Positions 14,367 to 17,306 of a DNA stretch of 38,947 nt are shown here, one piece after another. Position numbers and translations under genes: made by a program. Positions within the stretch are counted from its first letter, which is position 1; every line of letters begins with the position of its first letter. The notes below the pieces were generated by a model. That model ran no database searches. It was not told the origin of the DNA and worked only from the letters and a program-made list of their open reading frames with translations. Source of the stretch: Candidatus Niyogibacteria bacterium (GTDB lineage Bacteria > Patescibacteriota > Minisyncoccia > HO2-45-28); NCBI GenBank assembly GCA_016432485.1, contig CP066691.1, forward strand, positions 347,762 to 386,708. The letters run 5' to 3'.

Positions 14367-14849
14367 CTACGCCTTAAACCCAAGAACTGGCAGGCCTGAT
14401 TTAATCATCTTCCAGATATCGCCTGCGCGAGAGAACCCCAGAACGGCTGACGCGCCGAAAATGGTGAAGTGCAGCTGTTCGGGTATCTTTTTCACTTCAC
14501 CCCACCAAAGAAACTTGAAACCGGTGGCAGTGAAATAATCATGAATCACGAACAGCCAAAAAACATAAAGAAGAACCATCCAAAACTCACCCTTGAACCG
14601 GTCAATGTGAGCGCCATCCTCCTTTTTATTGGTCTTATTGATGCTCTTGGCGCCGAGACAAAACACCAAAAACATCAGATAAGCTAGGGTCGCTTCGGTG
14701 GTCAGCGCTCTGCCTGCCTGTACCAAACCCAGAGCATCGGCCAACAAAATCTTAATCCAGACAATTGTGGCAAAACCTCCCAGCCACCACAAAAAACAAC
14801 CCACGTTCAAGCAAAAATGCCTTCGAATCGCGACTTTAAGCTCTTTCAT
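14367..14849 (-). CDS. Hypothetical membrane protein (about 4 TM)
   Basis: Hydrophobic ORF; AAGGAG SD before the ATG at 14849; GC hairpin at about 14331-14357 downstream. Confidence 0.7.
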   Translation of the reverse strand: MKELKVAIRRHFCLNVGCFLWWLGGFATIVWIKILLADALGLVQAGRALTTEATLAYLMFLVFCLGAKSINKTNKKEDGAHIDRFKGEFWMVLLYVFWLFVIHDYFTATGFKFLWWGEVKKIPEQLHFTIFGASAVLGFSRAGDIWKMIKSGLPVLGFKA

Positions 14850-14883
14850 CACATTTCTCCTTAGAGATGTGGGATTCATTGAC

Positions 14884-14918: not shown

Positions 14919-16223
14919 ATGGTAAATAAAAATCAAGTAGCTAATGCCCCCCTCACTCCCGGAGTATATTTCTTCAAAAATGGCGCGGGAAAAACCATAT
15001 ATATAGGAAAGGCGCAAAATTTAAGAATGCGCCTGATGTCATATTTCAGACACGATGATTTTGACAGCCGAAAACAAGCTATGCTCAAAGAGGCCTCAAA
15101 AATTTCCTGGCGCGAATTGAATTCGGATATTGAGGCCTTGATACAGGAGGCCGCGCTCATCAAAAAATATCGCCCGAAATACAATGTTTTAATGCGCGAC
15201 GATAAACAATATTTTTATGTCGCGTTTTCGCGCGAAAAATTCCCAAAAATTTATATAACCCACCAACCCCACCTTACTCGACATCCGATGTCGGGTAAGG
15301 TGGGGCCGTTTACTGACGGATGGGCGATAAAGACCGTTTTGAAAAACTTGCGCCGCGCCTTCCCCTACTGCCAATGCGCGATTATGGGCGGACTAAAACA
15401 TTCCCGTCCCTGCCAGCAAGCCGCGATCGGCCGCTGCCTCGGGATTTGCTGCCTGAAGGAAAATAAATGGCCCGAATTTTATCCGAACGCGAAGGCGCGC
15501 GCTGAAAAATATAAAGAAAATATAAAAATAATCAAAAAAATTCTTTCCGGAAATTATTCATCGGTTATTAAAAAAACGGTTCAGGATATGGAAGTCGCGT
15601 CCGCAGAAAAAAGATATGAAACCGCGGCCGAATTAAGAGACGCGATTAAAGCGCTTGAAAATATTTTCTCACACCGGCCGTTTTTATCCCGGGACGAAGA
15701 ATCGTGGCGGGAAAAAGGTTTGAATTATTTAAAAACAACTCTCGGATTAAAGGGTGCCGAAAGAATTGAATTTTTTGATATTTCAAACCTGCAGGGCAAA
15801 CTAGCCGTCGGTTCAATGGTTGTTTTTACCGGAGGCATGCCGGATAAAAAAGAATATAAAAAATTTAAAATTAAAACGCGAAGCGAACCGAATGACGTAG
15901 CCATGCTCAAAGAGGCGCTGATACGCCGTTTTAAACACGCGGACTGGCCGAAACCGGATTTGATTATAGTTGATGGAGGAAAAGCCCAGCTCAACACCGC
16001 TATATCTGCTCTCATCCCAAGTGGTCTAAGTCGGACTTGGACCATTGCGGCTTTGGCCAAGCGCGAAGAGGAACTATATTTGCCGAACGGACGCATTATT
16101 AAACTGAAAGACGGCCCGGAACCGCTTCTGCACCTCTTAACCTCTATGCGCGACGAAGCCCACAGATTTGCAATTTCTTATCATCGGAAATTGCGCGCAA
16201 AGCAAGCAATAACTCGATTATAA
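14919..16223 (+). CDS. uvrC: Excinuclease ABC subunit C, short form lacking the C-terminal HhH
   Basis: N-terminal GIY-YIG (PGVY..IYIGKA), Cys cluster, UVR helix, RNase H-like domain (FDISN, PDLIIVDGGKAQL, RDEAHRFAI). Confidence 0.93.
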   Translation: MVNKNQVANAPLTPGVYFFKNGAGKTIYIGKAQNLRMRLMSYFRHDDFDSRKQAMLKEASKISWRELNSDIEALIQEAALIKKYRPKYNVLMRDDKQYFYVAFSREKFPKIYITHQPHLTRHPMSGKVGPFTDGWAIKTVLKNLRRAFPYCQCAIMGGLKHSRPCQQAAIGRCLGICCLKENKWPEFYPNAKARAEKYKENIKIIKKILSGNYSSVIKKTVQDMEVASAEKRYETAAELRDAIKALENIFSHRPFLSRDEESWREKGLNYLKTTLGLKGAERIEFFDISNLQGKLAVGSMVVFTGGMPDKKEYKKFKIKTRSEPNDVAMLKEALIRRFKHADWPKPDLIIVDGGKAQLNTAISALIPSGLSRTWTIAALAKREEELYLPNGRIIKLKDGPEPLLHLLTSMRDEAHRFAISYHRKLRAKQAITRL

Positions 16224-16327
16224 GAAATTTAGAGAGGGGTCGGGAGAGAGCATTCTCTCCCGTGTAGGAAAACAGTCCGTAATTACGAGACGCCAGAAAC
16301 CGAGGGTTTCTGGGGAGCAAAGCGACG

Positions 16328-16351
16328 TCACCTACCACAAAAAACTCCGCT
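16328..16351 (+). repeat. 24-bp direct repeat, left copy (uvrC 3'-end-like)
   Basis: TCACCTACCACAAAAAACTCCGCT, identical at 16997-17020; the pair flanks hicBA. Confidence 0.9.
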
Positions 16352-16451
16352 CTGCCGCCTTGGCCTAAACTTAGTTTAGGCCACGATGCAAAAAACTTTT
16401 ATTTTAGGGTCTTTTTCTACTATGTTTTAGGCGGGCATATTTGGCGGTTTT

Positions 16452-16694
16452 TTATTCAGCATAAAATTCCTTTCTTAAATCGTTTTCGGAAATATATCTT
16501 AGCGCCTGATTATAAATTGCTTTTATGGTCCCGCGATCCAATTCTTTGTGGTTTGGAATGGTCATCGTCTGTTTTAAATCGCCAACGCGTCTTTTAAGTT
16601 TTATATGACTGCCTCTTTGGTTATCAACAGAAAAACCAAAGCTATTAAAAATTCTGATAACATCTTCGCCAGAAAGAATTTTTAATTTAGGCAT
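16452..16694 (-). CDS. hicA: HicA-family toxin (type II TA)
   Basis: GF...QRGSHIKL...TIPNHKELDRGTIKAI dsRBD-like HicA signature. Confidence 0.92.
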   Translation of the reverse strand: MPKLKILSGEDVIRIFNSFGFSVDNQRGSHIKLKRRVGDLKQTMTIPNHKELDRGTIKAIYNQALRYISENDLRKEFYAE

Positions 16695-16914
16695 TGACTT
16701 TGGCGGTCAGTTCAAAATTTGCCAAAACTGATGGTTCCGGGGCTAAATCAAAATCGGCCAGATTTTCGCCTTCTAACTGAAGCTCAACCGCCTCCTGGAT
16801 GTTTTTAGTTAAGTCATCGAGGGTTTTTCCTTGAGTTACAATCGGCAAATCAATGCCCTGTGCTATATACTGATTGTCGCCCTTATAAATATGAAACTGA
16901 ATAATTTTTTTCAT
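16687..16914 (-). CDS. hicB: Short HicB-family antitoxin
   Basis: YIAQGIDLPIVTQGKTLDDLTKNIQEAVELQLE partial RNase H fold. Overlaps hicA; probable start at 16914 (ORF to 16950). Confidence 0.85.
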   Translation of the reverse strand: MKKIIQFHIYKGDNQYIAQGIDLPIVTQGKTLDDLTKNIQEAVELQLEGENLADFDLAPEPSVLANFELTAKVNA

Positions 16915-16959
16915 TGGTTTTATTGTACTAAATTTTAAGAAATTAGTCAAAATCTGTTT

Positions 16960-17037
16960 TTAACCTCCCTTCGCGACGAGGCGCACCGCTTTGCCATCAC
17001 CTACCACAAAAAACTCCGCTTAAGCGCGATTACTTGA
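16960..17037 (+). pseudogene. Orphaned uvrC 3' end (LTSLRDEAHRFAITYHKKLRLSAIT*)
   Basis: Translates to a near-copy of the UvrC C terminus (LTSMRDEAHRFAISYHRKLR) with many synonymous differences. Confidence 0.88.
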
Positions 17038-17062
17038 CAATATGGACTCTTTGCCCTATACT
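17034..17062 (+). promoter_or_regulatory. secG promoter, probably leaderless
   Basis: TTGACA-17-TATACT, 7 nt before the ATG; the -35 overlaps the stop codon of the uvrC relic. Confidence 0.7.
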
Positions 17063-17069
17063 TAAATAA

Positions 17070-17291
17070 ATGGCGTTTATTAAAACTCTTTTGCCTTACG
17101 CCCAAATAGTTGTGGCTTTGCTCCTAGTTGGCGCTATACTTTTACAACAACGGGGAGTGGGCCTTGGTTCTGCTTTTGGCGGAGAGGGAAACATTTACCG
17201 CACAAAACGCGGATTCGAAAAAGTAATTTTCACAAGCACCGTCATTTTGGGAGCCATTTTTCTAATTCTTGCGATTTTGGGTCTATTCTAA
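17070..17291 (+). CDS. secG: Preprotein translocase subunit SecG
   Basis: ILLQQRGVGLGSAFGG...TKRGFEK plus two TM helices. Confidence 0.93.
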   Translation: MAFIKTLLPYAQIVVALLLVGAILLQQRGVGLGSAFGGEGNIYRTKRGFEKVIFTSTVILGAIFLILAILGLF

Positions 17292-17306
17292 ATTCCACAA
17301 ACATTT

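Follow-up and report, generated by a model that had tools for sequence, protein, structure and literature searches.

The uvrC-secG junction of a tiny groundwater CPR bacterium of Candidatus Niyogibacteria has probably been shaped by two separate integrase-free insertions into a uvrC end resembling that of the sister genome G001, which once ran straight into the secG promoter, with a Campbell-type circle as the probable intermediate of the hicBA insertion. The junction lies in the window, the whole stretch of 38,947 nucleotides analysed here, which belongs to a genome of 837 kb, and the order uvrC-secG is kept across the family.

Three stacked uvrC ends and the hicBA pair

The preliminary description had reported three successive uvrC ends, and all of their coordinates hold (Table 1), as does the exact 24-bp direct repeat (TCACCTACCACAAAAAACTCCGCT) that it placed in the second and third ends, on either side of hicA-hicB. 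A search of the 837-kb genome for further copies of this 24-mer, with up to 3 mismatches allowed, found none beyond those two. Reading of the sequence gave ...LTSMRDEAHRFAISYHRKLRAKQAITRL* as the end of the live gene, in which the UvrC_RNaseH domain is whole (positions 3-159 of the 159-position Pfam profile). Tail 1 had also been said to differ mainly at synonymous sites. It shares 70% nucleotide identity with tail 3 over 60 nt, and because only 3 of 20 residues are changed, the differences are indeed mostly synonymous. On its left side tail 3 begins abruptly.

Table 1. Features of the uvrC-secG region, with positions counted from the first letter of the window.
Feature	Position	Strand	Remarks
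uvrC (live)	14919-16223	+	434 aa; GIY-YIG, UVR and RNase H endonuclease domains; without HhH domain
Tail 1 (copy A)	16147-16223	+	Replacement end ...MRDEAHRFAISYHRKLRAKQAITRL*; element-specific part from about 16172
Inverted arm	16215-16229	+	CGATTATAAGAAATT; reverse complement of 16172-16186 in tail 1
Structured core	16236-16326	+	GGGGTCGGGAG, hairpin 1, GTGTAGGAAAACAG, hairpin 2, CCAGAAACCGAGGGTTTCTGG, GGAGCAAAGCGAC
Tail 2 (copy B)	16328-16368	+	Displaced end (V)TYHKKLRSAALA*; reading frame of 13 codons at 16330-16368; holds left 24-bp repeat copy, 16328-16351
Palindrome over tail 2 stop codon	16361-16383	+	Perfect 11-bp arms
Tail 2 palindrome and trailer	16361-16420	+	Trailer of about 35 nt, homologous to sequence past the native uvrC stop in G002
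hicA, predicted toxin gene	16452-16694	-	80 aa; Pfam HicA_toxin (PF07927), E 1e-15, 58 bits (cut-off 27); G-S-H motif in ...NQRGSHIKLKR...
hicB-type, predicted antitoxin gene	16687-16914	-	75 aa; upstream of hicA, 8-nt overlap with hicA
hicBA promoter	16922-16950	-	TTGACT, 17-nt spacer, TACAAT; right edge of cassette
Tail 3	16957-17037	+	uvrC end LTSLRDEAHRFAITYHKKLRLSAIT*; reading frame of 26 codons at 16960-17037; holds right 24-bp repeat copy, 16997-17020
secG promoter and secG	17034-17291	+	Promoter 17034-17062 (-35 TTGACA at 17034-17039, spacer of 17 nt, TATACT), with the tail 3 stop (17035-17037) inside the -35 box; gene 17070-17291

The second gene of the cassette was paired with hicA in more than 20 genomes. 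Its product gave a weak match to Pfam HicB_lk_antitox (E 0.015, under the cut-off), and sequence searches against NCBIfam and the PDB were uninformative. The AlphaFold model (pLDDT 91.6) retrieved 1wv8, 2yzt and the antitoxin 3k6q as the top Foldseek folds, with probabilities of 0.98-0.99 and a TM of about 0.6 at E values of just 0.03-0.1, so that the predicted fold of the 75-aa protein is of HicB type, corresponding to the partial RNase H-like N-terminal part of HicB. The C-terminal DNA-binding domain of HicB (RHH or HTH) is absent from this protein of 75 aa, which is single-domain like all 23 aligned homologues. The G+C content of the cassette is slightly lower, and composition decides nothing.

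The preliminary description had further concluded that at least two events took place at this site and that no integrase is present. Both points stand. The genome encodes one tyrosine recombinase only (PF00589), a 304-aa open frame 231 kb away that occurs in all five genomes of the genus.

The empty site and the origin of each tail

Comparison with relatives revealed the predicted empty site, in which tail 3 would lie directly by secG. In G001, uvrC ends in ...ITYHKKLRLSAIT (longer, LTSIRDEAHRFAITYHKKLRLSAIT) directly on the secG promoter, and its stop codon falls within the secG -35 box. Tail 3 together with the secG promoter is 94.5% identical to this live uvrC end; the 4 differences all lie in the first 14 nt, and the remainder is identical through the secG promoter. 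Tail 3, already proposed to be ancestral on account of the overlap of its stop with the -35 box, is by this comparison the ancestral uvrC end. A second uvrC-secG junction free of any insert, with a different tail, was found in Logan contig L138. Within the species, empty-site variants were sought and none was found, as every contig with an identical SecG carries hicBA. The UvrC query of metagenome contigs yielded no extra close relatives (best match 53% identical).

The live uvrC reads as an obvious mosaic between species. Over its first 830 nt or so (to about 15750), the gene is about 98-100% identical to that of G001, identity falls beyond this point, and the last 75 nt or so are G004-like; secG is just 78% identical to that of G001, against the near-identical 5' part of uvrC. 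The segment 16147-16351, comprising tail 1 and the core, is 95.1% identical to G004, compared with 72.8% for the uvrC body, which bears out the earlier proposal that uvrC was regenerated with a foreign 3' end. Tail 2 with its trailer is similar to the native uvrC end of G002 (76% identity across 54 nt), and genus relatives that lack the gene-end element have uvrC tails of the tail 2 or tail 3 type. Judged by these identities, tails 1 and 2 are both foreign, tail 1 as the end brought in by a separate event.

The uvrC end had also been presented as an att-like hotspot for toxin-antitoxin cargo, a claim that was retained in part. Different cargo occupies the uvrC-secG junction in G002, G003, G004 and contig L139; in G002 a second uvrC tail of about 250 nt lies past the cargo, and G004 has three uvrC tails. 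However, among 129 uvrC loci from the class and from metagenomes, duplicated tails are limited to this genus, and uvrC is therefore not a general attachment site. For the 24-mer, a dedicated att core is a less convincing reading than a recombination patch, the best-conserved part of homologous uvrC tails, since related hicBA cassettes at other loci have quite different repeats, made of other gene ends, on their flanks. Its 19-mer core, when searched in genome contigs, was genuine in G001 and G004 only, the other nine occurrences being in unrelated bacteria and close to the number expected by chance.

A dispersed gene-end element and a mobile cassette

Tail 1 belongs to an element of about 100 nt with a fixed layout: new gene end, inverted arm, hairpin core and displaced old end. 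The same layout was found at fusA, rpsG, rpmG, tRNA-Val, tRNA-Lys, tRNA-Glu and other genes, both in this genome and in relatives. The core is a dispersed repeat: BLAST gave 5 matches in its own genome, where motifs reveal further copies, as well as 6 in G004 and 4 in G006; it has a fold z-score of -5.2 and shows compensatory changes at five base pairs. No Rfam family was found for it, since the search of the whole window (gathering threshold) and of 11 element loci (E <= 0.1) returned only tRNAs, and a search of the literature on MITE-like elements in CPR found no paper.

The 15-nt arm at uvrC is 93% complementary to 16172-16186 (15/15 in G004), and arms complementary to the gene end likewise occur in the fusA, rpmG, rpsG, tRNA-Val and tRNA-Lys copies. 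Copy B begins exactly at the counterpart of the first nucleotide of the tail 1 arm target, as it also does in the fusA, rpmG, rpsG and tRNA copies. The uvrC arm itself matches the element-borne copy A and not the displaced copy B. In genomes without the element, rpmG has the B-type end and the same downstream flank; B is therefore native and A introduced. Copies A and B share 58-75% identity, too diverged for homologous exchange in the patch, and the first entry of the core into a gene end must therefore require another mechanism. The uvrC copy of the element is 95% identical to that of another species and directly adjoins the second, core-less cargo insertion. Tail 1 is accordingly the replacement end of a dispersed, structured mini-element and more than one further att product.

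Of 401 genomes of the class, 48 contain hicBA homologues, but the family's 8 other genomes have none, a patchy distribution as expected for horizontal mobility. Direct repeats of local sequence flank hicBA at 13 of 25 loci in related CPR genomes, compared with 0 of 100 mismatched control pairs; at 12 of the 25 no flanking repeat was detectable. These repeats of 19-122 bp, each different, derive from local gene ends. Among them are a 52-bp stretch from the ksgA start, one of 86 bp from the start of an AbrB-like gene, and stretches of 32-122 bp from the 3' ends of three genes, one of them Mfd-like. At several loci, additional diverged homology is present on one side only, and at every repeat-bounded locus the flanking repeat abuts the cassette promoter. 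Recombinases were absent from all repeat-bounded units, and at uvrC the 24-bp repeats enclose no genes except hicB and hicA, with the promoter of the pair. The cassettes have no terminal sequences in common, and the core element was absent near the repeat-flanked relatives. On this evidence hicBA is a mobile cassette separate from the gene-end element. A transposon or insertion sequence was rejected as the source of these structures, since conserved ends and a target duplication of fixed length are lacking among hicBA repeats that vary from 19 to 122 bp.

Proposed mechanism, alternatives and known systems

In the mechanism that we favour, a small DNA unit would have recombined with the chromosomal uvrC end inside the stretch that survives as the 24-bp repeat. 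This unit would have consisted of the promoter, hicB and hicA plus a patch of uvrC end copied from a relative of the G002/G004 type (...LTSLRDEAHRFAITYHKKLRSAALA*, the terminator palindrome and about 35 nt of trailer). After DNA uptake, a single crossover of its circular form (Campbell type, RecA-dependent) would produce a left tail ending in donor sequence (tail 2), the cargo, and a right tail with a donor start and a resident end (tail 3); the mosaic seen in tail 3, in which the few differences from G001 precede an identical remainder, is the one expected of a single crossover. In the other event, the structured gene-end element (replacement end A, spacer, inverted arm and hairpin core) would have been placed exactly before ITYHKKLR of the then-live tail. 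Its most likely route to uvrC would be an ordinary allelic exchange by recombination with a donor resembling G004, with the left crossover in the uvrC body and the right one in the 24-mer.

We infer the circular intermediate, the RecA dependence, the order of the two events and the first entry of the core into a gene end. RecA and ComEC are both encoded in the genome, and the Saccharibacteria, also of the CPR, have been shown to undergo natural transformation with homologous recombination (PMC10633639). The search for a donor genome with a uvrC ending in ...SAALA* followed by hicBA found none. An identical patch of 24-49 bp is close to the lower limit for RecA-mediated exchange, which counts against the mechanism. 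As to how one cassette came to carry patches of many genes, imprecise excision beside a neighbouring gene end is offered as conjecture only.

Site-specific integration would instead make the 24-bp repeat an attL/attR core, with a tyrosine or serine recombinase either lost (a CIME-like remnant) or acting in trans (e.g. Xer-like). We consider it unlikely, although the exact direct repeats around cargo, together with a regenerated gene end, recall e14 in icd and the tycheposons, and several different cargos lie at the same junction within the genus. None of the repeat-bounded hicBA units has a recombinase, and the sole PF00589 protein of this genome, present in all five genomes of the genus, is encoded 231 kb from the site. 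The repeats of related cassettes, varied in sequence and length (19-122 bp) and at unrelated gene ends, are a poor fit to one att-specific enzyme; duplicated uvrC tails, moreover, do not occur outside the genus. The preliminary description had advised looking for the repeat in mobile elements, and its 19-mer core gave no match in 2.9 million viral contigs.

One close parallel among integrase-borne systems concerns the E. coli icd gene, where the DNA of e14 gives a substitute 3' end that leaves the gene intact, the new end differs mostly at silent sites, and a pseudo-end of 163 bp (icd') remains on the far side (PMC6379469). All three features recur here, in likeness to e14 (and phage 21). However, the 15-kb prophage e14 encodes an integrase and has a fixed attachment site, whereas the present units are of 0.2-0.7 kb and lack a recombinase, and units related to them occur at many different gene ends. 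At the tRNA genes of Prochlorococcus, tycheposons and other integrative elements integrate one after another, displacing the older ones outward, and partial copies of the gene end remain between the cargo modules (10.1101/2020.12.28.424599). Stacked integrations at one conserved gene end, with partial end copies left behind, are thus the likeness to tycheposons, but tRNA-specific tyrosine recombinases set the site there, while here no such enzyme is seen, the target is protein-coding and the repeats vary in length. CIMEs are integrase-less elements between att sites, such as those in Streptococcus thermophilus at the fda 3' end, that need the integrase of a cognate ICE and share its attachment site. 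They resemble the present locus in that direct repeats enclose cargo without recombination genes where a housekeeping protein gene terminates, but here the genome recombinases and viral contigs yielded neither a cognate element nor a shared att.

Integron gene cassettes often carry toxin-antitoxin pairs, and they too are small single-operon units that stack at one site and move between genomes. The present units nevertheless do not fit an integron cassette: no IntI or other recombinase lies near the array, conserved ends of attC type are not apparent, and what is repeated at the junction is the end of the adjacent gene, here the uvrC tail itself. The HicAB toxin-antitoxin cassette was reportedly described by Makarova, Grishin and Koonin in 2006. 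The present pair is like it in the GSH-motif HicA domain, in the overlap of hicA with a preceding gene for a HicB-type fold and in the patchy distribution across genomes, but it differs in a HicB of just 75 aa without a DNA-binding domain. To our knowledge, HicAB cassettes have not been described as flanked by repeats of the gene ends that they target.

Also improbable is an origin as scars of linear DNA, in which diverged DNA taken up from relatives would be spliced in by homology-facilitated illegitimate recombination, with one homologous and one illegitimate end, and would leave a stub of the resident gene end without any circle or self-targeting unit. In its favour, the genome has ComEC and RecA, uvrC is an inter-species mosaic whose first 830 nt or so are 99-100% identical to G001 beside a secG of 78% identity, and tail 3 has an abrupt left edge, but this reading leaves unexplained the direct repeats that abut the hicBA promoter at many gene ends, as well as the constant start of copy B at the start of the arm target.

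A single nucleic-acid-guided mechanism for both insertions, in which the arm of the core pairs with the target and directs strand transfer and the entry of hicBA is tied to the core, seems very unlikely. Its appeal lies in an arm complementary to the gene end in every copy, in the conserved core with compensatory stem changes, and in the rpsG-fusA spacer, where a 269-aa cargo gene lies between two cores of inverted orientation. Yet repeat-flanked hicBA relatives have no core nearby, and the uvrC arm fits the element-borne copy A rather than the displaced target B. We know of no catalytic activity or partner protein for the structured core, which also counts against such guidance.

Several Logan contigs stop at 16155, 16202 or 16461, beside the dispersed repeat, but an assembly chimera, named at the outset as a possible refutation, or a local tandem duplication by replication slippage can be practically dismissed, since the tails match different lineages and not one another, three Logan contigs from two independent runs (SRR12113425 and SRR12113426) match 15900-17300 throughout with 100% identity, and the same arrangement recurs over 16044-17300 in a strain variant from SRR12113390.

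With its empty site, foreign ends and independent assemblies, the locus is a well-resolved example of the integrase-free entry of DNA, as we propose it, at the end of an essential gene without disruption. Recognisable mobile elements are scarce in ultra-small CPR bacteria, although the genomes of these organisms are mosaic. In other genomes the same toxin-antitoxin cassette is bracketed by copies of many different gene ends, which suggests that genes may flow by a general route. If so, gene-end stubs could flag recent acquisitions in CPR genomes, and short gene-end patches might serve to deliver DNA into CPR organisms that are hard to manipulate genetically. More tentatively, it is conceivable that genes are generally captured in CPR without a recombinase, whereby any small unit, for instance a toxin-antitoxin pair with its promoter or a folded non-coding core, that carries a short mimic of a conserved housekeeping gene end becomes self-targeting and, after uptake, inserts in distant relatives. 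If this were true, the gene end would be silently replaced and the old end left as a stub, and cassettes would stack behind essential genes, integron-like, without a dedicated integrase; the inverted arm of the structured core might then fix the exact junction.

Two other candidates were considered. A diversity-generating retroelement was rejected, as the changes from tail to tail show no specificity for adenine and the neighbourhood lacks a reverse transcriptase gene. RAYT-type Y1 transposases are not supported as the engine, since their private palindromes are each unrelated to the core; such transposases occur upstream of secG in G003, and G000 has two.

Three uvrC ends and the empty site

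The preliminary description had placed three successive uvrC 3' ends in the window, with an exact 24-bp direct repeat flanking hicA-hicB and the stop codon of the third end overlapping the secG -35. All of these features were recovered at the claimed positions. The 24-mer has no further copy in the 837-kb genome, with up to three mismatches allowed. The cargo between its two copies consists of hicA (Pfam HicA match, E 1e-15) and an overlapping 75-aa gene with an AlphaFold model of pLDDT 91.6; the top structural matches of the predicted protein are HicB-type (1wv8, 2yzt) and the antitoxin 3k6q. The secG -35 hexamer contains the tail 3 stop codon, and the hicBA promoter, in opposite orientation to the secG promoter, is located immediately left of tail 3.

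Positions of the uvrC ends and associated features in the window
Feature	Position	Strand	Description
Gene between uvrA and uvrC	14367-14879	-	170-aa predicted membrane protein
Live uvrC (end, tail 1)	14919-16223	+	434 aa, ends ...LTSMRDEAHRFAISYHRKLRAKQAITRL-stop
uvrC inverted arm	16215-16229		pairs with 16172-16186
Core	16236-16326		hairpin-structured part of the gene-end element
24-mer, first copy	16328-16351		TCACCTACCACAAAAAACTCCGCT
Tail 2	16330-16368	+	13 codons, TYHKKLRSAALA-stop
Tail 3	16960-17037	+	26 codons, LTSLRDEAHRFAITYHKKLRLSAIT-stop
24-mer, second copy	16997-17020		TCACCTACCACAAAAAACTCCGCT

Two sequencing runs gave three Logan contigs that span 15900-17300 at 100% identity; in a strain variant, the uvrC body differs and the tails and cargo are the same. 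The three-tail arrangement is not an assembly artefact, and the chimera considered beforehand was not borne out. The UvrC in the window and its approximately 120 closest homologues have about 380-500 aa and no C-terminal (HhH)2 domain; UvrC of model bacteria has roughly 600 aa, including this domain.

Close relatives are recorded as Candidatus Niyogibacteria or Wildermuthbacteria (Parcubacteria, CPR), and the species-level collection comprised five genomes of the genus. Judged by uvrC, the closest is the sister genome G001: identity across the whole gene body is 91.6%, rising to 98-100% in the first ~830 nt. This genome has the empty site that had been predicted, a uvrC end (LTSIRDEAHRFAITYHKKLRLSAIT-stop) beside secG, with its stop codon within the secG promoter. 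A Logan contig from a further relative (L138) shows uvrC, terminator and secG without insert. Tail 3 and the secG promoter are 94.5% identical to G001, with differences confined to the first 14 nt. On the basis of the empty site, the L138 junction and this identity, tail 3 is the remnant of a resident, G001-like uvrC end, in agreement with its proposed ancestral status.

Comparison of 14919-17291 with G001 also revealed a sharp interspecies mosaic, secG being only 78% identical. The gene upstream of uvrC, with no match in Pfam or NCBIfam, is replaced in G001 by an unrelated ORF. In G001 uvrC (loci L004 and L034), an internal 27-nt tandem repeat, LVARAKLLSALVGRAKLL, coincides with a contig break at which the contigs overlap by 55 bp; the repeat is also found in strain L165 of the window's species and is absent from the window.

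A dispersed element at gene ends

The stretch 16147-16351 matches the corresponding region of G004 at 95.1% identity, against only 72.8% for the uvrC bodies. BLAST gave five copies of the ~105 nt that separate tail 1 from tail 2 in the own genome, six in G004, four in G006 and one each in G002, G003 and G005, and motif searches revealed additional copies of the core. Compared with shuffled sequence, the core folds far better (z-score -5.2). In aligned copies, compensatory changes at five base pairs preserve two hairpins, which lie around single-stranded motifs that do not vary. An Rfam search of the element gave no match, and it is apparently an undescribed repeat family of CPR.

The layout is the same in every copy: a functional gene end with its stop (copy A), a short spacer, an inverted arm complementary to the start of copy A, the core, and a second gene end (copy B) whose first nucleotide falls exactly at the homologous position. 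It was found at the 3' ends of rpmG, rpsG and an unnamed gene, at the 5' end of fusA, and at tRNA genes for Val, Lys, Glu, Gln, Trp and Asp. In genomes free of the element, rpmG has an end of the B type and its downstream flank is unchanged; B is therefore the native and A the introduced end at this gene. This also applies to uvrC, where the tails of element-free relatives are of the tail 2 or tail 3 type.

Some copies have further rearrangements nearby. In the own genome (C1:508750-509910), a 269-aa gene occupies the rpsG-fusA spacer and has a core on either side: a short variant with the displaced tail KFGHFAW-stop at the rpsG 3' end, and a full, inverted one at the fusA 5' end, a site with an exact 70-nt duplication. 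At C1:244700-244960, the displaced rpmG tail is followed by a tRNA-Trp 5' half cut at the anticodon and joined to a CCCCGCAGCTGCG(A)GG hairpin, then by an intact tRNA-Trp and the anticodon-plus-hairpin motif again; this hairpin also occupies the variable hairpin 2 in several cores. In G004 (contig C32, locus L052, locus positions ~760-1900), three tandem core copies 336 bp apart form a small array in which core, displaced rpmG tail and tRNA-Trp repeat as a unit.

The hicBA cassette and its proposed route of insertion

Homologues of the hicBA pair (50-81% identity) were found in 48 of 401 genomes of the class and in none of the eight other genomes of the family. Direct repeats of local sequence flank the pair in 13 of 25 loci, compared to 0 of 100 mismatched control pairs; no flanking repeat was detected in the other 12. 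The strong cases are gene ends: the ksgA start (52 bp), the start of an AbrB-like gene (86 bp), and the 3' ends of three other genes, one Mfd-like (32, 55, and 122 bp). In each of these, one repeat adjoins the cassette promoter; in several, additional diverged homology is seen on a single side. The units compared have neither common terminal sequences nor a recombinase inside, and relatives with repeats have no core element nearby. These comparisons point to hicBA as a mobile unit separate from the core element.

A single crossover between a circle, carrying cargo and a gene-end patch, and a chromosomal gene end would leave a left copy ending in donor sequence and a right copy that starts as donor and finishes as resident. 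The end of tail 2 (SAALA-stop), its palindrome and the ~35 nt trailer resemble the native G002 uvrC end, while tail 3 differs from G001 at its start and is identical over the remainder, as this crossover predicts. One-sided divergence also occurs in the two tails of G002 and in repeats around hicBA relatives. The genome encodes RecA and ComEC; its single tyrosine recombinase, present in all five genus genomes, is 231 kb away. Saccharibacteria, another CPR lineage, are naturally transformable, with homologous recombination (PMC10633639). For these reasons, recombination via a short homology patch is favoured over an att/integrase system; of the att-like integration without integrase proposed earlier, the lack of a recombinase in the unit stands. 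The 24-mer is in the most conserved stretch of the tails, and G001 and copy B of G004 share its first 19 nt. This would explain why both events have their junction there.

The most likely source of tail 1 and the core is a G004-like donor, through ordinary allelic exchange. The first entry of the core into a gene end would need another route, the divergence between copies A and B being too great for homologous exchange within the patch. No donor with uvrC...SAALA-stop followed by hicBA was found. Site-specific recombination in trans is a possible alternative to the homology patch, and the repeats may also be scars of linear DNA.

The closest comparison is with elements that insert into a gene end and supply a replacement for it. 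CIMEs, although integrase-less themselves, rely on a site-specific integrase and a fixed attachment site. The same dependence holds for e14 in icd (PMC6379469) and tycheposons at tRNA genes (10.1101/2020.12.28.424599), both of which bring a substitute end. The uvrC locus differs from all three in that the unit lacks a recombinase and related units lack a common site, as tests of both points showed. The locus is classed as a variant of "surrogate gene end" insertion, combining one copy of a CPR repeat family with a gene-end-mobile toxin-antitoxin cassette.

Occupants of the uvrC-secG junction

Other genomes of the genus carry different cargo at this junction. In G002, uvrC is followed by three small membrane-protein genes, a second uvrC end of ~250 nt, a small ORF and secG; G004 has related cargo and three uvrC ends, and in G003 a Y1-transposase gene bracketed by palindromes precedes secG. 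In a relative with 68% identical UvrC (contig L139), uvrC is followed by a different gene again. A survey of 129 uvrC loci, drawn from the class and from metagenomes, found duplicated uvrC tails in this genus only. The junction is a local hot spot rather than a widely used attachment site.

The ORF of L139 (3585-3704, minus strand, at least 39 aa, MGKDLTVAQSLLRGNEASEVLMILRARKYSQEQFKLGLA-stop) follows the uvrC terminator at the contig end. The G003 gene (L207, contig C97, 640-1406) encodes a 225-aa IS200/RAYT-like Y1 transposase with the HUH motif PNHYHLI, and its flanking palindromes are 24 nt long (GTGCCACACCGGGTGTGGCAC). Two RAYT-like genes of the own genome (C1:410437-411048 and C1:453611-454114) encode proteins that are, respectively, 33 and 29% identical to that of G003, and each gene is bracketed by a palindrome of its own (GTCCGAACTCGGTTCGGA... 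and TACGGACGTTCAACGTCCGTA) that has no relation to the gene-end core.
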